A stretch of 64,000 nt of DNA from Eledone cirrhosa (lineage: Eukaryota), in the NCBI GenBank assembly GCA_964016885.1, contig OZ024748.1, forward strand, positions 39,618,001 through 39,682,000, read 5' to 3'. Positions within the stretch are counted from its first letter, which is position 1. Each line of letters begins with the position of its first letter. The position numbers were made by a program, and so were the translations under genes. The notes under the pieces were generated by a model. It was not told the DNA's origin. It ran no database searches and worked only from the letters and a program-made list of their open reading frames with translations. Positions 7,401-64,000 of this stretch are shown in pieces.

Positions 7401-9392
7401 CCCTGTTTCCAGGGCATCCCTAGGCCACGCACATTCACGGTTCCAACTCGTAAACCAGCCATGTTGGTGAAGAAAAGTTGGAGAAAAAGGATGAAATGTG
7501 CACTTACCTTTTCGTTTCCTGGAGATCGGGTTGTTCAATCTCCATTTGGGTGCTGGATGGGGTGTTGGGTGGGGTGGGGAAACATTTTAACAGGACGCGG
7601 TTGATGGGTTGTGGCAGGGGTTGCCCACGTCCTGTGAACATTTAATCTTTAGGTCTTTATAGGTTTCCATAGAAACCCTTATAAGTTTAAGGTGTGGAGA
7701 CGATTCTGCCTTGACGAAAGTTTTGACCTCCGTCTCCACCTTGGGGTTTGGGGAGATGACCTCCATCAAACTCTTGTTGTTTGTGTTGATGTATGCGTAT
7801 TGTTGTTTGTGTTTTTGTTGTGTTGTTTTAGTTTGTTTTTCATCCGGGAGTTTTCTTTTTATGGTGGGTGCTTGTGTTTGGGGTGGTGTTGGTGCTGGTG
7901 TTGCTGATAGGGGGATGTTTGACTGTGGTGTTGTTTGTGTTGTTGTTTGTGTCTGTGGTTGTGTGTTGGTGTTGGTGATTGGAGTTTTGAGGGTTTTGTG
8001 GTGTCTCTTTTTTTGTTGTTTAGATTTCCGCGGTTCTCCCTCTTCTTCACTTAAAGAAGGAGAAGCAGCTTCATCCGTCGATGAATAATCATCGTCAGGT
8101 GTGTGGGGTAAGGGTATGTTGTGTGCTGGTGGTGTTTCGGTATGTGTGTTTGTGGTAGTGTTTGATGGAGTGGGATGGAGTGGGGATGTGTTCTTCAGGG
8201 GTGTTGTCTCTGTTTTTTTCTGTTGTTGTTGGTTGAGTGTCTGTTTGTTTTGGTGTGGTTGTACTTGTGGTGGTGGTGGTTGTTTTGGTGTTGGTGTTTG
8301 TTGGTAATAGCGTTTATTTTATGATGTTGTTGTTGTGTGTGTGTGGACAAGAGGCTTTTGGGTGAGCTGTGCTACCACAGCGAAAGCATTGAAATTTTCG
8401 TCCTTCTACCGAAATGTTTATTTTGTTGTTATTATCAATAACGACTCTTACGGGTATTTTGGAGATTCTCTCCGGTTTCATTTGCAACAGAATCTCCAAA
8501 TCTGTGTCCGCGCACCTTTGTCGAATAGATTTTCGTATTGAAAGTATTATATCTGTTTCTGGCTCTACGAAGCCAGCCAAGATCCACCAGATGTTAATGT
8601 TTGGAGGTATGTTTTTTATTTTTATTTTTTGTGTCCTTTTCCCCATGTATGTAGGGAAAAAGGTGCATGCTTTTGACACCATTGGTGTCACAGAGTTTTT
8701 TTGGGCGAGTGCCTCGCTTTTAAACAGTACGGAAACACTTCCGTACTGTTTTCCTCGCTGGAGAAAATCGACATTTGCTAGAATTTCCTTGAAAGTATCT
8801 TCTATATCTGCTTGATTAACAAATTTCGGCTTTCTTGTCGAATTTGACACAGTCCTAAAAGTGACTGATCTGCGGATTGTGTCTTCCTTTATTTCAAGGG
8901 GTGAGTTAATTCTAAACCCACCTCTTTCTTCGAAAGTTACAAATTTTCTCCCTTGCTGGAACATATCTCTTGCGTTGGAGATATCAAGATTTATAAAATC
9001 TTGTTTTTTGTTCACTGTTTCAGGGAAAGACATTTTCTTTTTTTGTGTGGTGTTACTGTTGATGTTGTTGTTATCGTTGTTGGAAATCTCAGTTCCTTGT
9101 CGAGGTGAAACTTTATGTGTAGATGTATCTGTAGAGTTGTTGATGTCTTTTTCATGTGTATGTATGTCAATGGGTTTAATTGCTGTGTTTTCCTGTGTGT
9201 TATTGTTATTTTTCTCAGCTTCGACGGTAGAAATTTTAAAATTTTCAAATGTTAAAATATGTTTCTCTTTGCCCCCCAGCTGACAATTCAGGTTGGGGGT
9301 TAATCTACAAAATAATGTTTTTTCAAACAATTAGTTCGGTTTTTTGCATAGAAATTAACAAAAAAGCTTACCGGCGATGTTCCACACGTCAG
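4461..9392 (-). mobile_element. Near full-length, decayed L1/Tx1-clade non-LTR retrotransposon
   Basis: ORF1 has a CCHC knuckle (CFRCGSTAHPKASC). ORF2 fragments: APE endonuclease (GTVNVRGL, IAITES, VYAP, SDH; from 7462 downward), RT (SAYADDVT, KLLGVWFG) and C-terminal CPRC..ETVLHAIVHC. It has frameshifts, stops and an internal deletion of the RT N-half near 6120-6200. Confidence 0.92.
8314..9330 (-). pseudogene. LINE ORF1 (gag-like, zinc knuckle), probably ended by a premature stop
   Basis: 338-aa ORF ending in CX2CX4HX4C. A low-complexity T/K/Q-rich continuation lies at 7590-8310. Confidence 0.75.
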
Positions 9393-9419
9393 ACAGAAAG
9401 AGAGATAGGTAGATAGATA

Positions 9420-10596
9420 TGTTTCTTTATTAGCCACAGGGGCACAAAAGAAGGGGACAAATACAAAGGGGGAAGTTTACATACAATAAAAACGTGTAAA
9501 ATGTTATCACAAATGCAATTTAAAAAGTTAGTCGATTTTCGCCAATAGAGGGAAACAGTTTATATGGGTAACACATACCCCCGAAAAAATGTGCAACCCT
9601 CATCTCCAGGAGTACGAAGAGTTTGTACTCCTTTCCTCTCCTCCTCCTTTTCCTCAACCTACAGACTGATATAGAGAGAAAGCCCATTCACTCGGACCAT
9701 TCTCGCCACTTTCACCCACCTTTCATAAAACTTGCTGGGGTACAGCACCTCTCTCTCCATCCTGATTCTTCTTCCAAAGTGGTATTTGAAAAAAAGAATC
9801 AGTTGTTGGCCGGAGAGAAAGGTGTCTGACTTCAGCCCTTTCAACCTTGTCCACTATACAACCGCTTTCGCCATAGCTAACACACAAAGGAAGACCGCCT
9901 CTCCTTCGTTTTTGAAGGAGGGTGGCGGTTTGATCATGACAATGGACTCGGCGGTCAACCGGATTGGTCCCACCCGCGACAATAGTCGTTCTACATAGCA
10001 CCACAGGTCAGTGACGCCCGGGCAGTGTATGAATGCGTGCGCGACGGTTTCTTCGACTCGCACGCACCTCGGACAGATCGTTTTTGCAGGGTCCCTGCCC
10101 GGGCGCCCATGTCTGTAGAGCTTGTCTCGAACTGGTAGAGCTCCTCGGTAGCATTGCCAGGCCAGGGACTTTTGGAAGTTGTCCATCGGTCCCGGGCGGA
10201 AGGTCCTACCGAACAGACTGGCCAGTTCATCTTCCTCTACGCCTAAAGTTTTCCCGAGCGCGTCGTCGCACTTGCTGCGGATCAACCCTCTATAGAATGA
10301 CGAAGTGGAGTCTCCACTGATCGCCGGGTCCGCCTGCCAGAGGGCTGTGAGCGCCTGAGCACATTCGATGTGCCAGTCGCCCATTTTCCTCGGTCTTTGC
10401 TTGACCCAGGACTGCAGCTCGGTCAGCGAGACGAGTCGTGGGAAGGCTCGCCTCACGAACGGGGCCCACACCGGTTGTCCGGTGAGGAATACGTAGAGAT
10501 GCCGCAGCCTGAGCGCGTGTTTGCGCATCGTCAACCACGGCATCCCCAGCCCTCCGTTAGAAGGGTGTTGGCAGCAGATGGATCTTCTCACCAAAA
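9420..10596 (-). mobile_element. Second, 5'-truncated copy of a related L1/Tx1 LINE (ORF2 C-terminus plus 3' UTR)
   Basis: HPSNGGLGMPW..GRTFRPGPMDNFQKSLAWQCYRGALPVRDK..CPRC is homologous to 4696-5583. It has the same tttattagccaca 3' end with a (GATA)-type tail at 9395-9420. Confidence 0.92.
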
Positions 10597-10930
10597 GGTA
10601 AGTCCTACGCAATCTATGTTTACATGCAGTAACCAGTTCATCTTTCTTGTTTAGGAGTTGGTCCGTCGAAAACAGCATTTGTAAAGTTTCCTCCGAGCAT
10701 AAATTGCACGGACGTTAGGACCAGGTTGTTTGTGATGTTCCTAGGATGGTTTGATCGGCGGTGGATGTAGTGCAGGTTGTCATTAGGTTTCCTGTATGGG
10801 TAGTACAGGTCGTTTTCGAGGTCGAGGGTCACGTCCAGGAAGTTTACTCGGGTCAGGGACGTTTGTAGGGTTATTTTAAATCCCCAGTCGCGGAAGAAGC
10901 TGATTAATTGTTTCCGGACCCGATCTGTAC
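10597..10930 (-). mobile_element. Penelope-like element fragment (RT end and GIY-YIG C-terminus, internally deleted)
   Basis: FLDVTLDLENDLYYPYRKPNDNLHYIHRRSNHP, then LLNKKDELVTACKHR; these are typical PLE motifs. Confidence 0.8.
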
Positions 10931-14260: not shown

Positions 14261-15130
14261 ATGGCTCCTTACTGTCAGTCCGGTATTTGTGCAGGTTGTT
14301 TTTCTCCATCTGAACACAGTCCTCTATGCTGATAAGACCTCTTCCACCTTCAGATCTCCTTAAGTAGAGTCTATCGACATCACTCCTCTTGTGGAACATG
14401 TTGTAGATAGTCAATAGCTTCCTAGTCTTTCTATCCATTTCTTTTTGTTCAGCAACATTCCATTTCAGAATAGACACAGCTCAGGAATTCACTGCACTTA
14501 TGATATTCCTACTGTTCAGGTGTGACTTTAATACGCTCCTTACTCTCCTTATGTACTCAGATCTTATCAATTCCTTCATTTTTTTGTTCTTGATGTCATC
14601 TGCCTCCAGAACACCTAAATATTTGTATCCTTCTTCAGTGTCAATTTCCTTTATCATGTCATCTGTTGGTACCTGGATTCCGTTGCTTCTGCTCATTTTA
14701 CCCCTCTTCATCACTAGGACTCCACACTTATTAATACCAAATTGCATACATATATCATTGCTGAAAATACGGACAGTGTCAACAAGCACATCCAACTCCT
14801 TCTCACTCTTCCCGAAGAGCTTAAGTTCGTCCATGAAGAGGAGGTGATTGATGGTAAGCTCTCCTTTTCCCAACTTGTATCCTGCTCTCACTTTTCGCAA
14901 TATAATGGTCAGGGGTATCAAGGCAAGGACAAACAGCAGAGGGGACAAACTCTCTCCCTGGAAGATACCTCTTTTGATCTTCACGCCTCCCAAGGATTCT
15001 ACACTCGATGTTAACTCTGTTTCTCAGGACTTCATACTTTTGCTCAACAACTGTCTGATGTTATCTGCCACCTTGAAGATCTCTAGACTTTTGGTGATCC
15101 AAGAATGAGGTACCATGTCGAAAACCTTTT
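14261..15130 (-). mobile_element. R4/Dong-like non-LTR retrotransposon RT fragment
   Basis: KRGIFQGESLSPLLF, NHLLFMDELKL, YKYLGV and RLYLRRSEGGRGL; in-frame stop at 14481. Confidence 0.82.
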
Positions 15131-15164: not shown

Positions 15165-15350
15165 CCAGTGGATTGGCAGTATCGGTAGAGGGTCGGACGC
15201 CCTGCTTTATAGCAAAGAGTTACGGCCCTTTATGTTCTGAGTTCAAATCCCGCCGAGGTTAACTTTGCCTTTCATCCTTTCGGGGTCGATAAAATAAAGT
15301 ACCAGTAATACACTGGGATAATTGCTGGCCTTGTGCCAAAAGTAGAAATT
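15165..15350 (+). mobile_element. SINE, family 1, with target-site duplication
   Basis: Full SINE with B-box-like gagttcaaatcc; ttattaaaattgcc occurs on both sides. Confidence 0.88.
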
Positions 15351-15599
15351 ATTAAAATTGCCTTTTCTATATCCTACACTGTTACGTAAACCCCCCCTTT
15401 TCTATCGCCTCTCTCTCTTTCTTTCTGCCTCAATACATACATACAGACAGACACACACACGCTATCTATCTATGACATAATTATTCCACGATCGACAAGT
15501 AACAATACACAATAGCGCACTTATGACAGGCCAGAGATTTACGTGGGAGGTGATCTACCATAAATTTGTAAGAAAATCTGTTGTTGTCTAGCATGTTCG

Positions 15600-16590: not shown

Positions 16591-16861
16591 ATTTTTTTAA
16601 TTAAAGATAATTTCAATAGAATTAGTATTCTCTCTTTAATTTAATATAATTTCAATAGAATTAGTAAATTCTCTCTTTAATTTAATATAATTTCAATAGA
16701 ATTAGTATAGTGTCTGTTTCACATTACTTCCCTTCCACTCCCATTACAGGGAATTCTTTTTCAGCTAGCCATTAACTAAGTGCTGTAATTTGATATCTTC
16801 ATTTCGTCTGTCCTTATTTTACTGACCTGGACACATACGTGGACCGACATCATTCCAAGAA

Positions 16862-18694
16862 TTGAAAACAGTAAACGGTCAAGTATGTGCCACTTATCGT
16901 GAAGCTTGCCAAGAATTAAATCTTCTTGAAAATGATGGACATTGGGACACTTCACTCGCTGATGCATCGAATACTGCTCGACCAAAGCAAATACGCACAT
17001 TATTCTCAATAATATTGACAACGTGCTTCCCATCAAATCCAAAAGATCTTTGGGAAAAATATAAAAACTACATGAGTGAAGACATCCTACATCGTTTGCG
17101 TGCAACAAATCAAAATATGAATATTCAATTCACACAAAATGTGTATAATGAAGCATTGGTTTCCATTGAGGTCATATGTTTAGCAATCGCTAACAAAACA
17201 TTGGTACAATTGGGAATGCCTGCGCCGAATCGATCTGTAAACGACATTTTCGATCGTGATTTGCAACGAGAAACAAACTTTGATGTCGCCGAATTGGGTA
17301 CATTTGTTCAAACGAATCTTGCCAAATTGCTACCAGAACAACGCATAGTATATGACCAAATTATGCAGGCAACTATAAGTCAAAGCGGCACATTGTATTT
17401 TATAGATGCGCCAGGTGGTACAGGCAAAACTTTTCTCATTTCACTTATTTTGGCAACTATACGATCAGAAAATAATATTGCACTGGCAATCACATCATCT
17501 GGAATTGCGGCAACTCTTTTAGATGGTGGCCGAACAGCACATTCAGCCCTGAAATTGCCATTGAATATGCAAATCGCTGAGACATCAACATGCAATATTA
17601 CCAAACATTCTGGTATAGGTAAAGTACTCCAATCATGTAAAATCATTATATGGGACGAATGTACTATGGCGCACAAAAAATCATTGGAAGCGCTTAATAA
17701 TACGCTAAAAGATTTGAAAGGAAATGAACACCTCTTCGGTGGCACACTCATTTTATTGTCTGGTGATTTTCGACAAACTCTACCAGTTATACCGCGATCA
17801 ACACCCGCTGATGAGCTTAATGCATGTCTCAAATCATCAGTTTTATGGCGACACGTACAGAAATTAACTTTAAAAAACAATATGCGTGTACAACTACAAA
17901 ATGACGCATCCGCTGAACGTTTCACAAAACAATTGCTGGATATTGGGAATTGGAAAATGGTAATCGATGATTCCACAAAATGTATCACATTGCCAACAAA
18001 CTTCTGTAGAATCACGGCAACCAGAGACGAACTGATTCACAAAGTGTTCCCAAATATTGCGCAGCATTACAAAAATCATCAGTGGCTCAGTGTACGTGCT
18101 ATATTAGCAGCCAAAAACACCGATGTCAATGCCATTAATTTCAGCATTCAAAACGAAATACCAGGCGAAGAGACAACGTATAAGTCCATCGATACTGTAA
18201 TGAATCAAGACGAAATTATCAATTATCCAATTGAATTCTTGAATTCACTTGATTTGCCAGGCATGCCACCGCACATTTTAACATTGAAAATTGGCGTGCC
18301 TATCATCCTTCTCCGAAACATCAATCCACCACAACTTTGCAACGGTACCAGACTTTCAGTGAAAAAGACGATGAACAATATCATCGAGGCTACAATTTTA
18401 AATGGAAAATTTAAAGGAGAAGATGTACTCTTGCCACGCATCCCAATAATTCCAACAGATACGCCATTCGATTTCAAACGTTTGCAGTTTCCGGTGCGAC
18501 TCGCCTTTGCAATGACTATCAACAAAGCACAAGGACAATCGCTACAAGTGTGTGGACTAAATTTAGAAAATCCATGCTTCTCACATGGACAGCTGTATGT
18601 GGCTTGCTCACGCGTCGGTAAACCTTCTGATTTATTCGTGTACGCACCAGAAGGAAAAACAAAAAACATTGTGTATCCAAAAGCACTTCAGTAA
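16862..18694 (+). CDS. Helitron RepHel C-terminal PIF1-like SF1 helicase (5'-truncated, no ATG start)
   Basis: DAPGGTGKT (Walker A), IIWDEC, LSGDFRQTLP, LRNINPPQLCNGTRL, FAMTINKAQGQS and HGQLYVACSRV. Confidence 0.93.
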   Translation: MKTVNGQVCATYREACQELNLLENDGHWDTSLADASNTARPKQIRTLFSIILTTCFPSNPKDLWEKYKNYMSEDILHRLRATNQNMNIQFTQNVYNEALVSIEVICLAIANKTLVQLGMPAPNRSVNDIFDRDLQRETNFDVAELGTFVQTNLAKLLPEQRIVYDQIMQATISQSGTLYFIDAPGGTGKTFLISLILATIRSENNIALAITSSGIAATLLDGGRTAHSALKLPLNMQIAETSTCNITKHSGIGKVLQSCKIIIWDECTMAHKKSLEALNNTLKDLKGNEHLFGGTLILLSGDFRQTLPVIPRSTPADELNACLKSSVLWRHVQKLTLKNNMRVQLQNDASAERFTKQLLDIGNWKMVIDDSTKCITLPTNFCRITATRDELIHKVFPNIAQHYKNHQWLSVRAILAAKNTDVNAINFSIQNEIPGEETTYKSIDTVMNQDEIINYPIEFLNSLDLPGMPPHILTLKIGVPIILLRNINPPQLCNGTRLSVKKTMNNIIEATILNGKFKGEDVLLPRIPIIPTDTPFDFKRLQFPVRLAFAMTINKAQGQSLQVCGLNLENPCFSHGQLYVACSRVGKPSDLFVYAPEGKTKNIVYPKALQ

Positions 18695-22638: not shown

Positions 22639-24136
22639 TTCCGACTTTATCGAACCATTTAAAATACATATTGTAGAGAACATAAAGATCAATAACCGTA
22701 ACGACAGATTAATTGCTCTCGAGAAAGCTGACTACAACATCTTTAAATTACAACCTGAAGATGTCATGATCTATTTCCTTACAGATGCTGGCACTAATGC
22801 TTTCAGTCTTGAACAAAACGCAAGAATATGGATGGGTGATGAAAGTTATGCCGGATCTACTAGTTATGAAACTTTGAAAGACACGGCAACATATATTTCT
22901 GGTTTTGAAAACATTCTGCCAGTTTTTTCTGAATGTATCAGCGAAGAGATTGTCGCTTCTTATTTCACAAAAGCTGGAGATAAGGTTATTGGGAATACTT
23001 TTACTTATTCACTTGAGAAGCATATAAAGGATCTTCATGCTGAAGCGATTTCTTTGTTAGATTGGTCAGATAATAATTTTGCAGGAAATCTAGATGTTCA
23101 AGCACTCAAAAACTTATTGGCAGAAAATGATAAAAAATCAATTTCCTTTCTTATAATGAATGTACCAGCAAAAAGTAGTGGTGGCCAACCAGTTAGTATG
23201 TCAAACATGAAAGCAGTTTCTGATCTCTGTCGCGAACATTCGATTCCGATATACATCGAAAGTAGTATGTATGGTGAGAACTGTTGGCTCAATAAAATGT
23301 ACGAAGAGGCTTACTTCAATAAATCGTTAGTTGAGATATCGCAAGAAATGTTTTCTTTTTTCGATGGCTGCATTATTTCTGCTAAAAGAGATGGTAGAAG
23401 TGAGATTGGAAGTGTCATTTGTCTTCAAGACAAAGAAATTACTCGAAAATTGGGCACTGTTATTACTCTTAAAGCAGGTTTCATAACTTATGGTGGGATG
23501 GCTGGCCGAGATATGGAAATGGTAGCGGTTGGCATGCGAGGTGCTTTGGATGAACAACTGCAAGACTATCGACAAAAACAATTGGCATTTTTCAAAAGAT
23601 CCCTGAAGGAATTTGGTGTTCCGATTGTGGAGCCAGTCGGTTGTAATACCATCTTCATTGATGCCGAAAATGCTTTTCCTAACTGTAAACACGCGTTTTA
23701 TCCAGCCTGGTCTTTATCTTGTGCTGTTTATATCGTCGGGGGTATCCGATGCGCAGAGTTTGGTCAAGTTACTCGTCCAACAAGTAGCTTACCCACTAAT
23801 CATTTTCTGAAAGACCGAGAATTACTAAAGCTTGAGATACCTCGTTTCATCTATACGACTTCTCACATTTTCTATGTTGCCTATGTTTTCGCTCAGCTTA
23901 TTTCACATGAAATGCTTTCTGGAATGAAACTTATTGCCTGCTCCGAAGACCAAATAAAAATCGTGAAAATAAAAATGAAACCAAATCATTCTCTGGAATA
24001 TGACGATATCCAACTCCTTCCGGTACAAGACTGTAAACACATTCACTTCTTTAAATACATATCTAATCAAAGAGTTATGAAAAGAAATTCAATCGCCGAG
24101 GCATCTTCTATATGGTCAGTCGACATTCATTCTTAA
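22639..24136 (+). CDS. Tryptophanase/TPL-family paralog A; predicted non-catalytic (PLP Lys to Arg) partner subunit; single large exon
   Basis: Family motifs EPFKIH, ADYNIFKL, FLTDAGT, GDESYAGS, GGQPVSMSN, GFITYGGMAGRDME, GGIR..EFG and IPR..YT. The frame is open for about 498 codons. Acceptor ttttcgtttcctttcAG at 22637-38; the ORF-track TTG start lies in the intron/RTE remnant. Confidence 0.9.
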
Positions 24137-28362: not shown

Positions 28363-29754
28363 TCTCCAAGCAATGGAACCTTACAGGATTAAGGTATTTT
28401 ATCCAGTCAATTTAATCCCCAAGTCTGACCGTATTGCATGTCTAAAAGCTGCCAACTACAACCCCTTTCTACTTAAATCGAAAGACATATTTATAGATTT
28501 GCTAACAGATTCTGGTACAGGAAGTCAAAGCAGTGCCCAGTGGTCGGCTATGACTAAAGCCGGCTATTCAACTATTAATTCCGAATACGTTAAGGAATTT
28601 GTACGTACAATTCAACACATTACCAATTTCAAACATGTATTTCCAGTTCATCAAGGTCGAGGAGCCGAAGGTTTGTTGGCAAAACTCCTACTGAATAAAG
28701 AGAGTGTTGTACTGAGTAATTCTCTGTTTGACACAACACGAGCACACGTTGAGTCATCTGGTGCAATTGGAATAGATTTGGCAACAAAGTCTTCAAAATT
28801 CTTAGGTGATGCCGATGTGGAAAAATTTGAAGAAACACTGGATGAATATGGTTCTAGAGTTCATCTTGTAATAATAACCTGCACCAATAATGTGGTAGCC
28901 GGAGCTCCTGTGAGCATGCAAAATATAGAAATCATAACAAAATTATGTCGAAACAAGAATATCCCAGTTATAATGGACGCATGCCGTTTTGTTGAAAATG
29001 CTTATTTTATCAAGACCTTAGACGAAAAATATTCTAAACACACAATCTTAGATATTGCCAGCGAAATGTTTTCTTATTTTGATGGTGCAACTATGTCTTT
29101 AAAGAAAGATGGTATGAGCAATGAAGGTGGGTTTATAGCTTTCAACAACGACAAATGGGCCACCAAAATATTTGACATAATCGAATATAAAAGTGGTTAT
29201 TCAACTTACGGGGGAATAACTGGATCAAATCTTGTAGCATGTACTGTCGGAATTTCTGAGGCTATGAACGAAAATTACCTCCGATCAAGAATCTATCAGG
29301 CTAAATTACTGGCTGATTTCTTGGAAGATAATAATATTCCCGTATTTAAACCAGTAGGGGCCCATGCCGTCTACGTGAAAGCAAACAAAGTCTTGCCACA
29401 CCTTGATTTCTTGAAGTATCCAGCATGGTCCCTTAATTGTGCCGTATATATATCGAAGGTGGTATTCGATATGGAGAAATTGGCAATATAATGTTTGGTG
29501 AAAATTCAGATGGAACTAAACAAATTCATCCCTTTGAATATGTGCGTTTGGGTTTACCCAGAAGAACCTATACGGTCAACCATCCGCATTTTGTGGCCAA
29601 AACTTTTGGTTTTGTTGCCAAAAAAGCCCATTTAATCCACGGAATGGAAATTGTCAAATCTTCGCATCTCCTAAGACATTTCACAATTTGGATGAGACCA
29701 TTAAATGAATACCACCTTGAAAAGAATAATAATCAGAAAAAAATAAACTGTTGA
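28363..29754 (+). CDS. Tryptophanase-like paralog B; carries the PLP-binding residues; 2-bp frameshift at about 29445-29453 (mutation or sequence error)
   Basis: MEPYRIK, DLLTDSGT, HQGRGAE, FDTTRAH, TNN..GAPVSM, MDACRF, SLKKDG (Lys 29105-07), then in the shifted frame IEGGIR.GEIG, VRLGLPRRTY and LRHFT. Acceptor ttttttttccAG at 28361-62; ATG at 28373 in gcaATGg context. Confidence 0.9.
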
Positions 29755-32160: not shown

Positions 32161-32924
32161 ATATATATGGATAATAGGATGAATTTGGTACAACCAATAA
32201 ATTATAAAGGCAACAAATATTTTCTTGTTTTAATATTGCAGTTTATACATATCTTAAGAAGCAGTATAAGAAAAGCTTACATTTCATTTTCAAACTTAAG
32301 TAAAAAATAAAATATATATTTATTTTCAATTTTTAAAATGCGAGCAAAAACATAAAATCGATTTCAATATTCATCACACACACATATATATACATGTATA
32401 TTATTTGGAAAAAAAAAGGGGGTGGGGTAAAGTTTTATACAAAAAAATGATGACCAGTTCGAATATTTGAGAGAAAACTCAAGTATATTCGAACTGCTCA
32501 GATATTAAAAAAAATTTTTTTATTAATATTCAATATTTAACATCTAATATTTGATAAAATTGTTTTACCAATCGAAACCAGTTATATTTAATGCAACAAT
32601 TATAAAATTATTCATTCTGTCAGATTAAAGAAAAAATAATCTTTTAATATTCCCTGAACTTTGGCAATTTCAACCCCCTACCAACAGTACTGCTGGTTCA
32701 CTCTGGGTCACAGCGTCTGAGACAAGTCAGAGCGTAGTGTCCAAATAATTATTTTAAATTATTCTATGAAAAATAAAAATTAATTACACGTATCTAAATA
32801 TCACAATTTGTTTTGTTGGATGATCTACCAACTTTGCCATCAACCAGTCATTTCTATCAAATAATTTCCAATAATATTTGTGAATATGAAAAGGTAAAGA
32901 AAGATCGATATATGTGTGTGTATA

Positions 32925-35900
32925 TATAACGTCTGAAGAGCTCAGGCTGTCATACCTGATAGTCCTCAGTGAAATATGTATAACGTCTGAAGAGCTCAGG
33001 CTGTCATAACTGATAGTCCTCGGTGAAATATGTATAACGTCTGAAGAGCTCAGGCTGTCATAACTGATAGTCCTCAGTGAAATATGTATAACGTCTGAAG
33101 AGCTCAGGCTGTCATAACTGATAGTCCTCAGTGAAATATGTATAACGTCTGAAGAGCTCAGGCTGTCATAACTGATAGTCCTCAGTGAAATATGTATAAC
33201 GTCTGAAGAGCTCAGGCTGTCATAACTGATAGTCCTCAGTGAAATATGTATAACGTCTGAAGAGCTCAGGCTGTCATAACTGATAGTCCTCAGTGAAATG
33301 TGTATAACGTCTGAAGAGCTCAGGCTGTCATAACTGATAGTCCTCAGTGAAATATGTATAACGTCTGAAGAGCTCAGGCTGTCATAACTGATAGTCCTCA
33401 GTGAAATGTGTATAACGTCTGAAGAGCTCAGGCTGTCATAACTGATAGTCCTCAGTGAAATATGTATAACGTCTGAAGAGCTCAGGCTGTCATAACTGAT
33501 AGTCCTCAGTGAAATATGTATAACGTCTGAAGAGCTCAGGCTGTCATAACTGATAGTCCTCAGTGAAATATGTATAACGTCTGAAGAGCTCAGGCTGTCA
33601 TAACTGATAGTCCTCAGTGAAATGTGTATAACGTCTGAAGAGCTCAGGCTGTCATAACTGATAGTCCTCAGTGAAATGTGTATAACGTCTGAAGAGCTCA
33701 GGCTGTCATAACTGATAGTCCTCAGTGAAATATGTATAACGTCTGAAGAGCTCAGGCTGTCAAAACTGATAGTCCTCAGTGAAATGTGTATAACGTTTGA
33801 AGAGCTCAGGCTGTCATAACTGATAGTCCTCGGTGAAATGTGTATAACGTCTGAAGAGCTCAGTCTGTCATAACTGATGGTCCTCAGTGAAATGTGTATA
33901 ACGTCTGAAGAGCTCAGGCTGTCATAACTGATAGTCCTCAGTGAAATGTGTATAACGTCTGAAGAGCTCAGGCTATCATAACTGATAGTCCTCAGTGAAA
34001 TATGTATAACGTCTGAAGAGCTCAGGCTGTCATAACTGATAGTCCTCAGTGAAATGTGTATAACGTCTGAAGAGCTCAGGCTGTCATAACTGATAGTCCT
34101 CAGTGAAATATGTATAACGTCTGAAGAGCTCAGGCTGTCATAACTGATAGTCCTCAGTGAAATGTGTATAACGTCTGAAGAGCTCAGGCTGTCATAACTG
34201 ATAGTCCTCAGTGAAATGTGTATAACGTCTGAAGAGCTCAGGCTGTCATAACTGATAGTCCTCAGTGAAATATGTATAACGTCTGAAGAGCTCAGGCTGT
34301 CATAACTGATAGTCCTCAGTGAAATGTGTATAACGTTTGAAGAGCTCAGGCTGTCATAACTGATAGTCCTCGGTGAAATGTGTATAACGTCTGAAGAGCT
34401 CAGTCTGTCATAACTGATAGTCCTCAGTGAAATGTGTATAACGTCTGAAGAGCTCAGGCTGTCATAACTGATAGTCCTCAGTGAAATGTGTATAACGTCT
34501 GAAGAGCTCAGGCTGTTATAACTGATAGTCCTCAGTGAAATATGTATAACGTCTGAAGAGCTCAGGCTGTCATAACTGATAGTCCTCAGTGAAATGTGTA
34601 TAACGTCTGAAGAGCTCAGGCTGTCATAACTGATAGTCCTCAGTGAAATATGTATAACGTCTGAAGAGCTCAGGCTGTCATAACTGATAGTCCTCAGTGA
34701 AATGTGTATAACGTCTGAAGAGCTCAGGCTGTCATAACTGATAGTCCTCAGTGAAATATGTATAACGTCTGAAGAGCTCAGGCTGTCATAACTGATAGTC
34801 CTCAGTGAAATATGTATAACGTCTGAAGAGCTCAGGCTGTCATAACTGATAGTCCTCAGTGAAATATGTATAACGTCTGAAGAGCTCAGGCTGTCATAAC
34901 TGATAGTCCTCAGTGAAATGTGTATAACGTCTGAAGAGCTCAGGCTGTCATAACTGATAGTCCTCAGTGAAATGTGTATAACGTCTGAAGAGCTCAGGCT
35001 GTCATAACTGATAGTCCTCAGTGAAATGTGTATAACGTCTGAAGAGCTCAGGCTGTCATAACTGATAGTCCTCAGTGAAATGTGTATAACGTCTGGAGAG
35101 CTCAGGCTGTCTGTCATAACTGATAGTCCTCGGTGAAATGTGTATAACGTCTGAAGAGCTCAGTCTGTCATAACTGATAGTCCTCAGTGAAATGTGTATA
35201 ACGTCTGAAGAGCTCAGGCTGTCATAACTGATAGTCCTCGGTGAAATATGTATAACGTCTGAAGAGCTCAGGCTGTCATAACTGATAGTCCTCAGTGAAA
35301 TATGTATAGCGTCTGAAGAGCTCAGGCTGTCATAACTGATAGTCCTCAGTGAAATATGTATAACGTCTGAAGAGCTCAGGCTGTCATAACTGATAGTCCT
35401 CAGTGAAATGTGTATAACGTCTGAAGAGCTCAGGCTGTCATAACTGATAGTCCTCAGTGAAATATGTATAACGTCTGAAGAGCTCAGGCTGTCATAACTG
35501 ATAGTCCTCAGTGAAATATGTATAACGTCTGAAGAGCTCAGGCTGTCATAACTGATAGTCCTCAGTGAAATATGTATAACGTCTGAAGAGCTCAGGCTGT
35601 CATAACTGATAGTCCTCAGTGAAATGTGTATAACGTCTGAAGAGCTCAGGCTGTCATAACTGATAGTCCTCAGTGAAATGTGTATAACGTCTGAAGAGCT
35701 CAGGCTGTCATAACTGATAGTCCTCAGTGAAATGTGTATAACGTCTGAAGAGCTCAGGCTGTCATAACTGATAGTCCTCAGTGAAATGTGTATAACGTCT
35801 GGAGAGCTCAGGCTGTCTGTCATAACTGATAGTCCTCGGTGAAATGTGTATAACGTCTGAAGAGCTCAGTCTGTCATAACTGATAGTCCTCAGTGAAATG

Positions 35901-37477
35901 TGTATAACGTCTGAAGAGCTCAGGCTGTCATAACTGATAGTCCTCGGTGAAATATGTATAACGTCTGAAGAGCTCAGGCTGTCATAACTGATAGTCCTCA
36001 GTGAAATATGTATAGCGTCTGAAGAGCTCAGGCTGTCATAACTGATAGTCCTCAGTGAAATATGTATAACGTCTGAAGAGCTCAGGCTGTCATAACTGAT
36101 AGTCCTCAGTGAAATGTGTATAACGTCTGAAGAGCTCAGGCTGTCATAACTGATAATCCTCAGTGAATTGTGTATAACGTCTGAAGAGCTCAGGCTGTCA
36201 TAACTGATAGTCCTCAGTGAAATGTGTATAACGTCTGAAGAGCTCAGGCTGTCATAACTGATAGTCCTCAGTGAAATATGTATAACGTCTGAAGAGCTCA
36301 GGCTGTCATAACTGATAGTCCTCAGTGAAATGTGTATAACGTTTGAAGAGCTCAGGCTGTCATAACTGATAGTCCTCGGTGAAATGTGTATAACGTCTGA
36401 AGAGCTCAGTCTGTCATAACTGATAGTCCTCAGTGAAATGTGTATAACGTCTGAAGAGCTCAGGCTGTCATAACTGATAGTCCTCAGTGAAATGTGTATA
36501 ACGTCTGAAGAGCTCAGGCTGTCATAACTGATAGTCCTCAGTGAAATATGTATAACGTCTGAAGAGCTCAGGCTGTCATAACTGATAGTCCTCAGTGAAA
36601 TGTGTATAACGTCTGAAGAGCTCAGGCTGTCATAACTGATAGTCCTCAGTGAAATATGTATAACGTCTGAAGAGCTCAGGCTGTCATAACTGATAGTCCT
36701 CAGTGAAATGTGTATAACGTCTGAAGAGCTCAGGCTGTCATAACTGATAGTCCTCAGTGAAATATGTATAACGTCTGAAGAGCTCAGGCTGTCATAACTG
36801 ATAGTCCTCAGTGAAATATGTATAACGTCTGAAGAGCTCAGGCTGTCATAACTGATAGTCCTCAGTGAAATATGTATAACGTCTGAAGAGCTCAGGCTGT
36901 CATAACTGATAGTCCTCAGTGAAATGTGTATAACGTCTGAAGAGCTCAGGCTGTCATAACTGATAGTCCTCAGTGAAATGTGTATAACGTCTGAAGAGCT
37001 CAGGCTGTCATAACTGATAGTCCTCAGTGAAATATGTATTACGTCTGAAGAGCTCAGGCTGTCATAACTGATAGTCCTCAGTGAAATGTGTATAACGTCT
37101 GGAGAGCTCAGGCTGTCTGTCATAACTGATAGTCCTCGGTGAAATGTGTATAACGTCTGAAGAGCTCAGTCTGTCATAACTGATAGTCCTCAGTGAAATG
37201 TGTATAACGTCTGAAGAGCTCAGGCTGTCATAACTGATAGTCCTCGGTGAAATATGTATAACGTCTGAAGAGCTCAGGCTTTCATAACTGATAGTCCTCA
37301 GTGAAATATGTATAGCGTCTGAAGAGCTCAGGCTGTCATAACTGATAGTCCTCAGTGAAATATGTATAACGTCTGAAGAGCTCAGGCTGTCATAACTGAT
37401 AGTCCTCAGTGAAATGTGTATAACGTCTGAAGAGCTCAGGCTGTCATAACTGATAGTCCTCAGAGAAATGTGTATAG
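32925..37477 (+). repeat. 54-bp satellite, about 84 units, each a hammerhead-ribozyme-like motif
   Basis: Unit: acgt-CTGAAGA-gctcaggctgtca-taac-tgatagtcctcagt-GAAA-tatgta-TA. Confidence 0.97.
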
Positions 37478-37697: not shown

Positions 37698-38293
37698 TAA
37701 ATAAATGGAAACTATATTTATAAAACTATATTTATAAACTATAGTTTTATAAATATAGTTTTTTAAATATAGTTTTATAAATATAGTTTATAAATATAGA
37801 TTTATAAATTATATTTATAAAACTATATTTATAAAACTATATTTATAAAACTATATTTATAAAACTATATTTATAAAACTATTTTATAAAACTATTTTAT
37901 AAAACTATATTTATAAAACTATATTTATAAAACTATATTTATAAAACTATATTTATAAAACTATATTTATAAAACTATTTTATAAAACTATTTTATAAAA
38001 CTATTTTATAAAATTATATTTATAAAACTATATTTATAAAACTATATTTATAAAACTATATTTATAAAACTATTTTATAAAACTATTTTATAAAACTATT
38101 TTATAAAACTATTTTATAAAACTATTTTATAAAATTATATTTATAAAACCATATTTATAAAACCATATTTATAAAACTATATTTATAAAATTATATTTAT
38201 AAAACCATATTTATAAAACTGTATTTATAAAACTATATTTATAAAACTATAGTTTATAAATATAGTTTTATAAATATAGTTTCCATTTATTTA
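37698..38293. mobile_element. AT-rich foldback-like element with internally repetitive (13-bp) inverted termini
   Basis: taaataaatggaaactatatttataaaactatatttataaactatag at the left end, with its exact reverse complement at the right end; the interior is (tatatttataaaac)n. Confidence 0.75.
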
Positions 38294-39121
38294 GTAATAA
38301 CAGTGCCCAATTTTCGAGTAATTTCTTTGTCTTGAAGACAAATGACACTTCCAATCTCACTTCTACCATCTCTTTTAGCAGAAATAATGCAGCCATCGAA
38401 AAAAGAAAACATTTCTTGCGATATCTCAACTAACGATTTATTGAAGTAAGCCTCTTCGTACATTTTATTGAGCCAACAGTTCTCACCATACATACTACTT
38501 TCGATGTATATCGGAATCGAATGTTCGCGACAGAGATCAGAAACTGCTTTCATGTTTGACATACTAACTGGTTGGCCACCACTACTTTTTGCTGGTACAT
38601 TCATTATAAGAAAGGAAATTGATTTTTTATCATTTTCTGCCAATAAGTTTTTGAGTGCTTGAACATCTAGATTTCCTGCAAAATTATTATCTGACCAATC
38701 TAACAAAGAAATCGCTTCAGCATGAAGATCCTTTATATGCTTCTCAAGTGAATAAGTAAAAGTATTCCCAATAACCTTATCTCCAGCTTTTGTGAAATAA
38801 GAAGCGACAATCTCTTCGCTGATACATTCAGAAAAAACTGGCAGAATGTTTTCAAAACCAGAAATATATGTTGCCGTGTCTTTCAAAGTTTCATAACTAG
38901 TAGATCCGGCATAACTTTCATCACCCATCCATATTCTTGCGTTTTGTTCAAGACTGAAAGCATTAGTGCCAGCATCTGTAAGGAAATCGATCATGACATC
39001 TTCAGGTTGTAATTTAAAGATGTTGTAGTCAGCTTTCTCGAGAGCAATTAATCTGTCGTTACGGTTATTGATCTTTATGTTCTCTACAATATGTATTTTA
39101 AATGGTTCGATAAAGTCGGAA
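38293..39121 (-). pseudogene. Inverted, 3'-truncated duplicate of tryptophanase-like paralog A
   Basis: Near-identical to 22639-23467 and keeps the acceptor (cctctcAG at 39123-22). It stops after GTVIT at the foldback element. Confidence 0.93.
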
Positions 39122-40912: not shown

Positions 40913-41010
40913 ATTTCGAAAAAAATATTGAAAGGAAGATTTTCTTACAGATCGGAGAAGTCCATGGCTGTTTCTTGTTGGTTTGGCAGATGTTTCGTAA
41001 AATTGATGTT

Positions 41011-44152: not shown

Positions 44153-44799
44153 CAAAGAAGAGAGACGGTTTTATGTATACATCCTCTGTTTATTATATAA
44201 TCCTGTTTTGTGCATTTCAAAGACATCAAAGTCATTGTATATAGATATATATATATATAATGAACCAGTTGTCCAATGTAGTTAATTTATTTCAGGTAAG
44301 ATATCTTAGTTAGTTTGGACCAAGCCGTTACTATCAAACATGTGATCAAAATCATATTCATAGTTGGGAGAAAAGTCTTCTAAATTCAGATCCGCAATGC
44401 TGAAACGTATGGAAGGAAAACACAGAAAAAAGACAAATCAATGTTTATGAAGGAACAAGAAAATAAGAGAGGCAAGTTAAAACAATTATATTTCAAAGAC
44501 TCAATGTATAGTCATGACACAAGTATTATAACGGGGAATTGGTAGACACATTAACTCTTAACGCCAGTTTTACTTGAAACCACATTAGTAAGACACTCTT
44601 GAAAAGTTCAAAACAAGACTATGACTGCATCATATTAAGTATTCAAGTCTTTAGTTTACAGCAAATTTTCACAAGTGTGTCCAATTGTAAAGACACTATA
44701 AACATTAGAATAAACGAACCAGTTTTTAGATATTTTCTATTGAAGAATTGCAAGATGTTAAGAGTTCAATGTCAGCTTAATTCATTACCATATTTCTGA

Positions 44800-47700
44800 C
44801 AAAAGACATTGTATGTCATTAACCCTTTCATTACCATACTTCTAATGAAAGACAAAGTCTATGTCATTAACCCTTTCATTACCATATTTCTAATGAATGA
44901 CACTGTCTATGTTATTAACCCTTTCATTACCATATTTCTAATGAAAGACACAGTCTATGTCATTAACCCTTTCATTACCATATTTCTAATGAAAGACACT
45001 GTCTATGCAATTAACCCTTTCATTAACATATTTCTAATGAAAGACAGTCTATGTCATTAACCCTTTCATTACCATATTTCTAATGAAAGACACTGTCTAT
45101 ATCATTAACCCTTTCATTACCATATTTCTAATGAAAGACACTGTCTATGCAATTAACCCTTTCATTAACATATTTCTCACAAAAGCCACTGTTTATGTCA
45201 TTGACCATTTCATTACCATATTTCTAATGAAAGACATTGTCTATGTCAATAACACATTCATTACCATATTTCTAATGAAAGACACTGCCTATGTCATTAA
45301 CACATTCATTACCATATTTCTAATGTAAGACACTGTCTGTCATTAACCCTGTCATTACTATATTTCTAATGAAAGACACTGCCGATGTCATTAACCCTTT
45401 CATTACCGTATTTCTAATGAAAGACAATGTCTATGTCATTAACCCTTTCATTACTATATTTCTAATGAAAGATACTGCCTATGTCATTAACCCTTTCATT
45501 ACCATATTTCTAATGAAAGACACTGTCTATGACATTAACCCTTTATTATCATATTTCTAATGAAAGACACTGTCTATGTCATTAACCCTTTATTATCATA
45601 TTTCTAATGAAAGACACTGTCTATGTCATTAACCCTTTCATTAACATATTTCTCACAAAAATACTGCCTATGTCCATATTACCATATTTCTAATGAAAGA
45701 CACTGTCTATGTCATTAACTCTTTCATTACCATATTTCTAATGAAAGACACTGTCTATTTCATTAACCCTTTCATTACCATATTTCTAATGAAAGACACT
45801 GCCAATGTCATTAACCCTTTCCTTACCATATTTCTAATGTAAGACACTGTCTGTCATTAACCCTGTCATTACTATATTTCTAATGAAAGACACTGCCTAT
45901 GTCATTAACCCTTTCATTACCGTATTTCTAATGAAAGACACTGTCTATGTCATTAACCCTTTCATTACTATATTTCTAATGAAAGATACTGCCTATGTCA
46001 TTAACCCTTTCATTACCATATTTCTAATGAAAGACACTGTCTATGACATTAACCCTTTATTATCATATTTCTAATGAAAGACACTGTCTATGTCATTAAC
46101 CCTTTATTATCATATTTCTAATGAAAGACACTGTCTATGTCATTAACCCTTTCATTAACATATTTCTCACAAAAATACTGCCTATGTCCATATTACCATA
46201 TTTCTAATGAAAGACACTGTCTATGTCATTAACTCTTTCATTACCATATTTCTAATGAAAGACACTGTCTATTTCATTAACCCTTTCATTACCATATTTC
46301 TAATGAAAGACACTGCCAATGTCATTAACCCTTTCCTTACCATATTTCTAATGTAAGACACTGTCTGTCATTAACCCTGTCATTACTATATTTCTAATGA
46401 AAGACACTGCCTATGTCATTAACCCTTTCATTACCGTATTTCTAATGAAAGACACTGTCTATGTCATTAACCCTTTCATTACTATATTTCTAATGAAAGA
46501 TACTGCCTATGTCATTAACCCTTTCATTACCATATTTCTAATGAAAGACACTGTCTATGACATTAACCCTTTATTATCATATTTCTAATGAAAGACACTG
46601 TCGATGTCATTAACCCTTTCATTAACATATTTCTCACAAAAGATACTGCCTATGTCCATATTACCATATTTCTAATGAAAGACACTCTCTATGTCATTAA
46701 CTCTTTCATTACCATATTTCTAATGAAAGACACTGTCTATTTCATTAACCCTTTCATTACCATATTTCTAATGAAAGACACTGCCAATGTCATTAACACT
46801 TTCATTACCATATTTCTGACACTGTTTATGTCATTAACCCTTTCATTACCATATTTCTAATGAAAGACACTGTCTATGTCATTAACCCTTTCATTACCAT
46901 ATTTCTAATGAAAGACACTGTCTATTTCATTAACCCTTTCATTACCATATTTCTAATGAAAGTCATTGTCTATTTCATTAACCCTTTCATTACCATATTT
47001 CTAATGAAAGACACTGTCTATTTCATGAACCCTTTCATTACCATATTTCTAATGAAAGACACTGTCTATTTCATTAACCCTTTCATTACCATATTTCTAA
47101 TGAAAGACACTGTCTATTTTATTAACCCTTTCATTACCATATTTCTAATGAAAGTCACTGTCTATTTCATTAACCCTTTCAATACCATATTTCTAATGAA
47201 AGACACTGTCTATGTCATTAACCCTTTCATTACCATATTTCTAATGAAAGTCACTGTCTATGTCATTAACCCTTTCATTACCATATTTCTAATGAAAGAC
47301 ACTGTCTATTTCATTAACCCTTTCATTACCATATTTCTAATGAAAGACACTGTCTATTTCATTAACCCTTTCATTACCATATTTCTAATGAAAGACACTG
47401 TCTATTTCTTTAACCCTTTCATTACCATATTTCTAATGAAAGACACTCTCTATGTCATTAACCCTTTCATTACCATATTTCTAATGAAAGTCACTGTCTA
47501 TGTCATTAACCCTTTCATTACCATATTTCTAATGAAATTCACAGCCTATGTCATTAACCCTTTCATTACCATATTTCTAATGAAAGACACTGTCTATGTC
47601 ATTAACCCTTTCATTACCATATTTCTAATGAAAGTCACTGTCTATGTCATTAACCTTTTCATTACCATATTTCTAATGAAAGACACTGTCTATGTCATCA

Positions 47701-49857
47701 ACCCTTTCATTACCATATTTCTAATGAAAGTCACTGTCTATTTCATTAACCCTTTCATTACCATATTTCTAATGAAAGACTCTGTCTATGTCATTAACCC
47801 TTTCATTACCATATTTCTAATGAAAGTCACTGTCTATGTCATTAACCCTTTCATTACCATATTTCTAATGAAAGTCACTGTCTATGTGATTAACCCTGTC
47901 ATTACCATATTTCTAATGAAAGTCACTGTCTATGTGATTAACCCTGTCATTAACATATTTCTAATGAAAGTCATTGTCTATGTCATCAACCCTTTCATTA
48001 CCATATTTCTAATGAAAGTCACTGTCTATTTCATTAACCCTTTCATTACCATATTTCTAATGAAAGTCACTGTCTATTTCATTAACCCTTTCATTACCAT
48101 ATTTCTAATGAAAGACACTGTCTATGACATTAACCCTTTATTATCATATTTCTAATGAAAGACACTGTCGATGTCATTAACCCTTTCATTAACATATTTC
48201 TCACAAAAGATACTGCCTATGTCCATATTACCATATTTCTAATGAAAGACACTCTCTATGTCATTAACTCTTTCATTACCATATTTCTAATGAAAGACAC
48301 TGTCTATTTCATTAACCCTTTCATTACCATATTTCTAATGAAAGACACTGCCAATGTCATTAACACTTTCATTACCATATTTCTGACACTGTTTATGTCA
48401 TTAACCCTTTCATTACCATATTTCTAATGAAAGACACTGTCTATGTCATTAACCCTTTCATTACCATATTTCTAATGAAAGACACTGTCTATTTCATTAA
48501 CCCTTTCATTACCATATTTCTAATGAAAGTCATTGTCTATTTCATTAACCCTTTCATTACCATATTTCTAATGAAAGACACTGTCTATTTCATGAACCCT
48601 TTCATTACCATATTTCTAATGAAAGACACTGTCTATTTCATTAACCCTTTCATTACCATATTTCTAATGAAAGACACTGTCTATTTTATTAACCCTTTCA
48701 TTACCATATTTCTAATGAAAGTCACTGTCTATTTCATTAACCCTTTCATTACCATATTTCTAATGAAAGACACTGTCTATGTCATTAACCCTTTCATTAC
48801 CATATTTCTAATGAAAGTCACTGTCTATGTCATTAACCCTTTCATTACCATATTTCTAATGAAAGACACTGTCTATTTCATTAACCCTTTCATTACCATA
48901 TTTCTAATGAAAGACACTGTCTATTTCATTAACCCTTTCATTACCATATTTCTAATGAAAGACACTGTCTATTTCTTTAACCCTTTCATTACCATATTTC
49001 TAATGAAAGACACTCTCTATGTCATTAACCCTTTCATTACCATATTTCTAATGAAAGTCACTGTCTATGTCATTAACCCTTTCATTACCATATTTCTAAT
49101 GAAATTCACAGCCTATGTCATTAACCCTTTCATTACCATATTTCTAATGAAAGACACTGTCTATGTCATTAACCCTTTCATTACCATATTTCTAATGAAA
49201 GTCACTGTCTATGTCATTAACCTTTTCATTACCATATTTCTAATGAAAGACACTGTCTATGTCATCAACCCTTTCATTACCATATTTCTAATGAAAGTCA
49301 CTGTCTATTTCATTAACCCTTTCATTACCATATTTCTAATGAAAGACTCTGTCTATGTCATTAACCCTTTCATTACCATATTTCTAATGAAAGTCACTGT
49401 CTATGTCATTAACCCTTTCATTACCATATTTCTAATGAAAGTCACTGTCTATGTGATTAACCCTGTCATTACCATATTTCTAATGAAAGTCACTGTCTAT
49501 GTGATTAACCCTGTCATTAACATATTTCTAATGAAAGTCATTGTCTATGTCATTAACCCTTTCATTACCATATTTCTAATGAAAGTCACTGTCTATTTCA
49601 TTAACCCTTTCATTACCATATTTCTAATGAAAGACACTGTCTATGTCATTAAACCTTTCACTACCATATTTCTAATGAAAGTCACTGTCTATGTCATTAA
49701 CCCTTTCATTACCATATTTCTAATGAAAGTCACTGTCTATGTCATTAACCCTTTCATTACCATATTTCTAATGAAAGACACTGTCTATGTCATTAACCCT
49801 TTCATTACCATATTTCTAATGAAAGTCACTGTCTATGTCATTAACCCTTTCATTACT
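44800..49857. repeat. 48-bp satellite (about 105 units) with 514-bp and 1567-bp higher-order repeats
   Basis: Unit: atgaaagacactgtctatgtcattaaccctttcattaccatatttcta. Variant patterns recur at 45369/45883/46397 and 46588/48155. Confidence 0.97.
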
Positions 49858-51852: not shown

Positions 51853-53382
51853 ATTAATAAAAACAATGAATAAAAACAAAGAAACAATTCCTTATATTAA
51901 CAAATTCATCATTTTACGATCGTTTCTAGGATATATATGTGTGTGTTGGTATGTATATCATATAGATCTATGTAAGCATTTTACAAACTATCAGAGGAAA
52001 TATACATACCTACACATATATATGCTGAATATATGAAATAATTGTTTCTATTTTAGGCACAAGGCCAGCAATTATCCAGTACATTACTGGTACTTTATTT
52101 TATCGACCCCGTAAGGATGAAAGGCAAAGTTAACCTCGGCGGGATTTGAACTCAGATCATAAAGGGACGTAACTCTATGCTTCAAAGCATGGTGTCCGAC
52201 TCTCTACCGATACTGCCAATCCGCCGCTGAATATATGAAATAATGATATCTGTTTATTGAAAAACACCAACAAAGATTTAATATAATAAGTCTGTTTGGG
52301 AGCAGGTTTTTAATTGACCAATAGAAGAGTAGTAAGTGGTCAAGTTGATAGAATAGTAGTAGTAGAAATTTAATTTAGGGGTAGAGGAATGCAGACTTCA
52401 GTTTTGAAGGGAAATAATACTTTGAATGAAAAGATTACTTTGGGGATGAAAAGAGGTCAAGCCGGTGAAAGGTACACGAAAATTTTATGTTATTAAAGAA
52501 TAATGCTAATGTTAAAATCGAAGGAGAATAAAATTTTAGGATAAATGTGTTAGTGAGAAATACCAATCTTATTAAAAACATAAGGAATTTAGATCTATAA
52601 AAAGAAATTAAATTAATTAATAGGTATACTTATAGGGATAAATTTATATTAATTCATATAGATGTGATAAATAAGAGTTAGATGTTATTAAAGAATGTTG
52701 TTAAAAACGAAGGAAAAGAATTGGGGGAGGGGGATAAATGTATTAGTGAGAAATAACAAACTTATATAGACTACAAGGAATTTAGATTCATAACAGGAAA
52801 TTAAAATAGTTTATATGTATACTTATAGGTATTAATTTTAGGAAAAGATAGCTGTAACAGGGAAATAAAATTATGAAGTTCTCAGTAGTAAAATACTAAT
52901 TATAGGTTAACTAAATTTAAAAAAAGCTAATTATAAGAATTTGTAATATAAAAGTGTATATTAATTAGGTTTATAATATTTGAAAGTTCTTCTAATTCTA
53001 TGATTGCACGATATAATTAATTCTTGTCGCTTCTTTAATAGGATATCCTTAGATTTCATTATTTCAAAAAGTTCCTGGGAACATAATCTACACTCATATC
53101 TGTTATTTTGATAAGGGATGGCCCTTCTGAGCACACTCCAGGTCAGGTTATAATCGATATACTTTTTTCTATAATTATTAATTATTTCAGCCAAGGATGT
53201 TATATTAGCTAATGCGGCATTTCTAAACTGTGTTTGTGGGTATTAAATCTTACTTTAAATTGGTTAGAAGTAGCTCCTATATATGAATAAGTTGAGTCCT
53301 TAGTGCTAATTTTACATTTATATACTATGCTATTAATAAGGCAATTTCCTTTTAATGGGCAATTTGCATTGTTTCTCAAGGA
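51853..53382 (-). mobile_element. Penelope-like element 3' part (GIY-YIG C-terminus plus UTR)
   Basis: ORF 52961-53194: LTWSVLRRAIPYQN..YECRLCSQE..LLKKRQELIISCNHR. Its UTR is repeated in inverted form at 57203-57850. Confidence 0.8.
52043..52225 (-). mobile_element. SINE, family 1, with 19-bp TSD
   Basis: gctgaatatatgaaataat at 52024-42 and 52226-44; the empty site is seen in the inverted copy near 57660-57678. Confidence 0.92.
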
Positions 53383-63547: not shown

Positions 63548-64000
63548 CAACATACTGACTATGTTAAGACATCACAACATACTGACTGTGTTAAGACATC
63601 ACAACATACTGACTGTGTTAAAACATCACAAGATACTAGCTGTGTTAAGACATCACAAGATACTGGCTGTGTTAAGACATCACAACATACTGGCTGTTAA
63701 GACATCACAACATACTGACTGTGTTCAGATATCACAACATACTGACTGTGTTAAAACATCACAACATACTGACTGTGTTAAGACATCACAACATACTGAC
63801 TGTGTTAAGACATCAAAACATACTGACTGTGTTAAGACATCACAACATACTGACTGTGTTCAGACATCACAACATACTGACTGTGTTAAGACATCACAAC
63901 ATACTGACTGTGTTAAGACATCACAACATACTGGCTGTGTTAAGACATCACAAGATACTGGCTGTGTTAAGACATCACAACGTACTGACTGTGTTAAGAC
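63548..64000. repeat. Second array of the 27-bp minisatellite (runs off the window)
   Basis: Same unit as 711-3345. Confidence 0.97.

Follow-up and report, generated by a model that had tools for sequence, protein, structure and literature searches.

A broken tandem copy of a putative two-subunit tryptophan indole-lyase gene in the octopod Eledone cirrhosa

Exons resembling bacterial tryptophan indole-lyase (TIL, tryptophanase) are found in a 64,000-nucleotide stretch of the Eledone cirrhosa genome (the window), which raises the question of what kind of enzyme an octopod may encode there and where the gene came from. Judged from sequence, we hold with good confidence that the window contains a broken tandem copy of a two-subunit cephalopod TIL gene, the two chains of which, A and B, likely pair into one site for the splitting of L-tryptophan. 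This corrects the sequence-only reading of the locus: instead of a fresh bacterial import and a stand-alone enzyme, exon B would encode one of the two halves of an enzyme that is divided between chains and descends from an old animal gene, and the window holds a broken copy of it.

The span of exon B runs from an AG acceptor with a polypyrimidine tract to the stop codon. In a profile search it matches Pfam PF01212 with an E value of 1.2e-48, far beyond chance, and it reaches 399 bits against PRK13238 (cut-off 285). Intact B from sister copies and exon A reach 493 and 397.6 bits with the same PRK13238 model and 166 and 126 bits with PF01212 (cut-off 27). Both exons thus lie above the curated cut-offs and are members of the tryptophanase/beta-eliminating lyase family. 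They are 31% identical to each other, and among named proteins their nearest relatives come from octopods: B shares 82% identity with Octopus bimaculoides and 80-82% with Argonauta, and for A the values are 75% and 71%. Against the equivalog models TIGR02617 and NF053783 for classical TIL, B stays below the cut-off (348 against 825.8 and 390 against 750), as do the intact enzymes of chiton, bivalve and coral.

The lyase exons had been described as uninterrupted. This is true of exon A, which is open, but the B copy in the window is frameshifted by two extra bases and the inverted copy A' is truncated. The 2-bp insertion is common to the window copy and a neighbouring copy (L008) and is absent in the other seven of the nine B copies of the genome. 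Past the insertion, about 100 C-terminal residues are encoded in a different frame, and these comprise EIG, LRHFT and the Arg that binds the carboxylate; intact sister copies encode 459 aa counted from an in-exon ATG. The motifs taken earlier as signs of Trp-type specificity are present: FDTT, EIG and LRHFT stand where tyrosine phenol-lyase (TPL) has FTTT, ERG and LRFFT (the last visible in the alignment of 9j3u), with EIG and LRHFT out of frame in this copy. In addition, a deletion of about 60 nt, recognised against unit 1 (L023), has removed the ATG and the 17 coding nucleotides from the first exon of the window unit. A PIF1-helicase frame, by inference Helitron-like, occupies its first intron and is absent from the introns retrieved for units that retain exon 1. 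The deletion in exon 1 and the helicase frame in the intron mark the window unit as a degenerate copy.

The surroundings are those of an animal genome, as had been noted before: reverse transcriptase, integrase-like and PIF1 open frames and minisatellites lie around the lyase exons (Table 1). Contamination was already regarded as unlikely, and it was rejected here in view of the 60.6-Mb contig, a host-like GC content, a spliced contig and orthologues in four other octopods.

Table 1. Features of the window, with positions counted from its first nucleotide
Feature	Position	Strand	Basis or remark
Long minisatellites (27-, 54- and ~48-nt)	710-3345, 32921-37476, 44781-49856, 63547-64000		give spurious long open frames
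LTR-type (weak integrase match) and LINE-type retroelement fragments	53376-56002 (-), 4615-10714, 14481-15023 (-)		
Shared first exon, remnant	15339..15580	+	retains the upstream part and the GTAAG donor at 15568, judged against unit 1 (L023)
PIF1-helicase open frame in first intron	16826..18694	+	622 codons
Exon A, open single coding exon, lysine-less subunit with trans residues (GDESY, TYGGMAGRD)	22639..24136	+	phase-2 AG acceptor before 22639
A, Tyr of GDESY, Tyr72* equivalent	22847..22849	+	alignments; residue given to the partner chain in solved TIL
A, Arg replacing the PLP lysine (SAKRD)	23387..23389	+	alignments
Exon B, single coding exon, PLP-lysine-bearing subunit	28363..29754	+	frameshifted copy; run X4 shows splicing into 28363
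B, Thr67 at the catalytic Tyr72*/Tyr71* position, GDEAY motif replaced	28571..28573	+	alignments
B, Lys245 (SLKKD), PLP Schiff-base lysine kept	29105..29107	+	alignments
TA run with two extra bases	29445..29453	+	shifted frame runs to 29491, 372 aa
A', inverted, 3'-truncated copy of exon A, 99% identical	38293..39121	-	ends in AT-rich minisatellite; comparison with A
Shared first exon, intact coding part, 17 nt, phase 2, then GTAAG	40949..40965	-	inverted partial duplicate

The annotation of O. bimaculoides and O. sinensis treats A and B as isoforms X1/X2 that begin with the same six residues. The Eledone genome has a matching first coding exon of 17 nt, with a GTAAG donor, 6.1-7.0 kb upstream of A, and the acceptors of A and B, both of phase 2, continue its reading frame. 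The acceptor of exon B, which had been proposed as spliceosomal, is in use: in run X4, 29 nt of exon 1 are joined directly to base 28363 in a contig of 1537 nt that does not carry the 2-bp insertion. X4, one of four runs from a single study, was taken as RNA from this spliced contig, whereas the long contigs of runs X1-X3 continue into the intron rather than splice; assembled contigs drop rare variants. At 17 sites compared, the X4 contig matches unit 1 at all 17 and the other eight copies at 4-7, and the contigs of X1-X3 carry the majority-type sequence. The first exon is therefore spliced to B, as seen in one run, and likely also to A, given the acceptor phase and the annotation of the other octopuses; the junction with A was not seen in this species.

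A search of the whole genome placed all 21 candidates on one contig (C8, 39.13-40.13 Mb), 9 of them B, 10 A and 2 inverted A'. Of the B copies, six are intact, one contains a nonsense codon and the remaining two carry the TA insertion. Among the ten A copies, seven encode 495 aa, one 494 and one 514, and one is frameshifted. The first exon occurs in six forward and three inverted copies, two of the latter with a truncated A', and control matches were 0. Five of the ten units are complete, with exon 1, a full A frame (extended in one) and an intact B. The units are 98-99% identical, and their flanks are ~97-99% identical to unit 1 over kilobases. Non-synonymous to synonymous differences between unit 1 and unit 4 amount to 8:4 in B and 7:4 in A, which are small counts. 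The idea that unit 1 is ancestral and the others are drifting was dropped, since polarising the differences between units 1 and 4 against other octopods gave mixed results.

The array and the frameshift might be assembly artefacts of a locus with one or two copies, a view that concerns the array only. Five intact B copies differ at just 0-2 of 1377 nt, the insertion sits in a TA run and the contigs of X1-X4 carry only the in-frame form, with the reservation on rare variants made above. However, the units vary in intron length (6091-7013 nt), in spacing (50-167 kb, with one gap of 448 kb) and in their lesions, and the insertion is common to two neighbouring copies which also share the inverted duplicate of exon 1 and A'. 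Moreover, the agreement of X4 with unit 1 and of X1-X3 with the majority type speaks for distinct copies. We consider an artefact unlikely. In Argonauta hians, P0123, P0007 and P0499, which have adjacent gene numbers, are models with B-type sequence, one of them joined to A. The cassette of exon 1, A and B may be tandemly duplicated there too, and the 847-aa B-A record (P0123) is probably a gene-model join and not a natural fusion.

For the TIL of Proteus vulgaris, a passage in PMC11301627 describes Tyr-72* as contributed by the other chain of the catalytic dimer and gives Thr50, Ser52, Arg101, Phe132, Asp133, Asn194, Asp223, Ser263, Lys266, Arg414, His458 and Phe459 without the asterisk. In the E. 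coli enzyme, Tyr74 and Tyr307 act in trans and the activity of Y74F is negligible, as stated in an excerpt of PMC2770544. The residues were mapped on the octopod chains via alignments to solved TPL and a joint alignment. Hybrid dimers of the E. coli mutants H463F and Y74F are said to rescue Trp activity.

Neither octopod chain holds both the PLP lysine and the trans Tyr72* by which the classical, self-sufficient homo-oligomer is recognised: B has only the lysine and A only the tyrosine, a point that the earlier reading had not noticed. All 12 same-chain residues are kept in B, among them the equivalents of the PLP lysine, Asp133, His458, Phe459 and Arg414, with Thr at the position of Tyr72*. 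Exon A keeps 2 of the 12, has Arg for the PLP lysine and retains both trans tyrosines. The same division is found in the orthologues, down to 43-57% identity. Tyr71*/72* is absent in all eight B-type proteins, and the covered same-chain residues are completely kept in seven of them and to 11/12 in one. The seven A-type proteins all lack the lysine, keep 2-4 of 10-12 same-chain residues and have both trans tyrosines; P0331, an eighth A-type protein, shows the same pattern. By comparison, both Tyr and Lys are present in 220 of 220 stand-alone top matches and also in the enzymes of chiton, bivalve and coral. Among 117 near-invariant columns, 24 are lost in every A but in no B, 11 in every B but in no A, and 3 in both. 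The split is not perfectly clean, as the second trans tyrosine is still present in 4 of 8 B orthologues and is Phe in the rest. A was modelled with the full TIL/TPL fold (pLDDT 84.6, pTM 0.85, Foldseek TM 0.85; alignment including bacterial relatives).

Since each chain keeps active-site parts that the other has lost, A and B likely work only as a pair. The earlier picture of B as a self-sufficient enzyme is not supported, as B lacks the trans Tyr72* and the window copy is both frameshifted and without its first-exon start codon. In the proposed mechanism, an A:B catalytic dimer would contain one site, with PLP on B and the proton-donor tyrosine coming from A, and an A2B2 assembly would contain two. 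Neither A nor B alone would cleave Trp, and the products that the pair forms from L-tryptophan would be indole, pyruvate and ammonia. The roles in pigmentation, defence or H2S production that had been suggested are speculative. Trp is the likely substrate of the heteromer from its residues: intact B keeps the equivalents of the Trp determinants Asp133, His458 and Phe459, which agrees with the specificity suggested before, although His458 and Phe459 lie beyond the frameshift in the window copy. Specificity for tyrosine was rejected, because B has Asp, Ile and His where TPL has Thr124, Arg381 and Phe448, and its TIGR02618 score is 382 against a cut-off of 720.7. A cephalopod A or B isoform assayed alone would falsely be read as inactive.

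Alternatively, B alone could be a homo-oligomeric beta-lyase acting on substrates with good leaving groups such as cysteine and S-alkyl-cysteines, with A as a conserved non-catalytic regulator or in another job. The same-chain site of B is complete, and a lysine without the tyrosine occurs in 17 of the 131 distant representatives with a single domain, so that Tyr-less members of the family may work alone on other substrates. Activity of TIL and TPL on S-alkyl-cysteines is described in passages of PMC11301627 and PMC9262865. B has kept, however, Asp133 and His458, which matter for Trp and not for S-ethyl-cysteine according to a part of PMC11301627. Furthermore, what A retains are precisely the trans residues, across 44% identity. 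Yuasa reportedly found in 2023 activity on co-expression only. A function of B without A thus seems very improbable, and the A:B pair is preferred.

The origin of the gene was analyzed with a quick tree of 92 rows and a careful tree of 51 rows out of several hundred proteins (LG+G4 without a mixture model). In both, the bacterial rows come from the proteins' own matches, there are no named protist or fungal rows and the root is a midpoint root only. A, B, chiton and bivalve group together in the 92-row tree (SH-aLRT 99). The animal group of the 51-row tree, supported at 100/99, comprises A and B with coral (Stylophora), chiton, bivalve, abalone and the horsehair worm Gordionus, an ecdysozoan; the non-coral group within it reaches 98/93, and A and B appear as sisters at only 71/69. 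Within A as within B, the octopod sequences stand beside another, deeper group, probably decapodiforms, which indicates that the duplication is old. From the animal grouping, the preferred reading is a vertical descent of the gene in animals, with many losses, and the A/B pair would have arisen by duplication of this old animal gene and subsequent complementary loss. With the sampling and rooting of these trees, a very old transfer into animals may or may not have preceded this descent. A recent acquisition of a bacterial tryptophanase by octopods, which had been suggested together with the phylogeny that we ran, is hardly credible: the top matches are mostly bacterial, at ~45% identity, and each lyase domain lies within one exon, but a branch supported at 100/99 sets all animal sequences apart on one side, both A and B include a deeper group next to the octopod one, and GC matches the host (intact B 0.372, intact A 0.373, window 0.375). 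The grouping with other animals is the outcome that the earlier reading itself had named as refuting a recent transfer. The view of a host-encoded, domesticated gene of Trp type is supported. In the abalone protein P0351 (Haliotis) and in the animal homologue P0357, Lys and Tyr are kept and the Trp determinants Asp133, His458 and Phe459 are changed, hinting at a substrate different from Trp.

Among 68 longer relatives and two more proteins, 37 non-cephalopod two-domain fusions were identified. They are bacterial tandem TPL fusions of 840-940 aa (P0128, P0141 and 35 of P0264-P0326). In 34 of the 37, the N-half has the Tyr without the Lys and the C-half the Lys without the Tyr, and the C-half is of TPL type (Thr124/Arg381/Phe448) in 36. 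In P0264 and P0265 the C-half is complete and the N-half has Phe in place of Tyr; P0271 differs again. More distant tandem fusions are mixed, several of them keeping the lysine in both halves. In both trees the bacterial fusions branch apart from the animal group, so their division is convergent with the cephalopod split. Together with the recent array, such an independent fusion would turn the TIL/TPL family into a natural experiment, run more than once, on the way in which a duplicated homomer is fixed as a heteromer. Other bacterial tryptophanases are fused to PF11991, a DMATS-type prenyltransferase according to one source and found mostly in Streptomyces, or to PF04820, which we take to be a tryptophan halogenase (a subset of P0294-P0321, and P0282, P0285, P0289 and P0327). 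These single-domain tryptophanase fusions keep Tyr and Lys in 32 of 32 cases. Several distant single-domain proteins (P0345, P0352, P0367, P0379, P0392, P0397 and others) have Phe or another residue at Tyr71 and an intact lysine.

The gene layout would place two obligate partner subunits in one transcription unit, which would make their co-expression automatic and possibly tunable. One may go further and imagine an indole splicing switch, in which one promoter and a tiny first exon feed the complementary halves by the choice of the last exon and the splice ratio sets the heteromer in each tissue, while the tenfold amplification of the cassette offsets a slow half-site enzyme and bacteria have arrived on their own at the same TIL/TPL split, in the form of a fused chain. 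We regard this combined scheme as rather doubtful. The literature search, which had the Yuasa texts outside its reach, found no description of the shared first exon or the array, and no paper was found that combines phenol-lyase with octopus. With those texts beyond the search, the claim is a weak one that the one-gene layout with alternative last exons and the ten-unit array are possibly new.

In 2023, Yuasa reportedly described in J Mol Evol two cephalopod TILs, TIL-alpha and TIL-beta, which show no activity singly and weak activity when assembled into a heterotetramer, and a second paper of Yuasa from that year is said to present animal TILs with low but real activity. The core mechanism, and with it the split of the cephalopod enzyme into two subunits, has thus very probably been published. 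Cephalopod TILs are the subject of Yuasa 2023 (J Mol Evol 91:912, PMID 38007709) as given in the reference list of PMC12980246, the other paper of that year being Yuasa 2023 in CBP-B (PMID 36228898), and tryptophanase (tnaA) genes of Octopus are already listed in a passage of PMC8537960. The pair of A and B fits TIL-alpha and TIL-beta, as they are reportedly defined, in being two cephalopod paralogues with complementary disruptive substitutions and in their orthology to the proteins of O. bimaculoides (75% and 82%). In contrast to Octopus, where searches gave one A and one B per species, an array of ten units with broken copies is present here. With bacterial TnaA (P. vulgaris 1AX4, E. coli 2C44), A and B jointly share the fold, the PLP lysine, Asp133/His458/Phe459 and the trans Tyr72*. 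The bacterial enzyme is a homotetramer with four sites and both halves on each chain, whereas the octopod halves lie on different chains. The LCB1 and LCB2 subunits of eukaryotic serine palmitoyltransferase, the textbook case of a PLP heterodimer with one site, are similar to A:B as two homologous subunits of a PLP enzyme with the lysine on one only, and are thought to form a single active site (a passage in PMC3794620). They differ in reaction and family, are encoded by separate genes and have no alternative last exons. The bacterial tandem-fused TPL resembles the octopod pair in its arrangement of a Tyr-only and a Lys-only half, but combines them in one chain, has Tyr-type specificity and stands on a separate branch of the tree.
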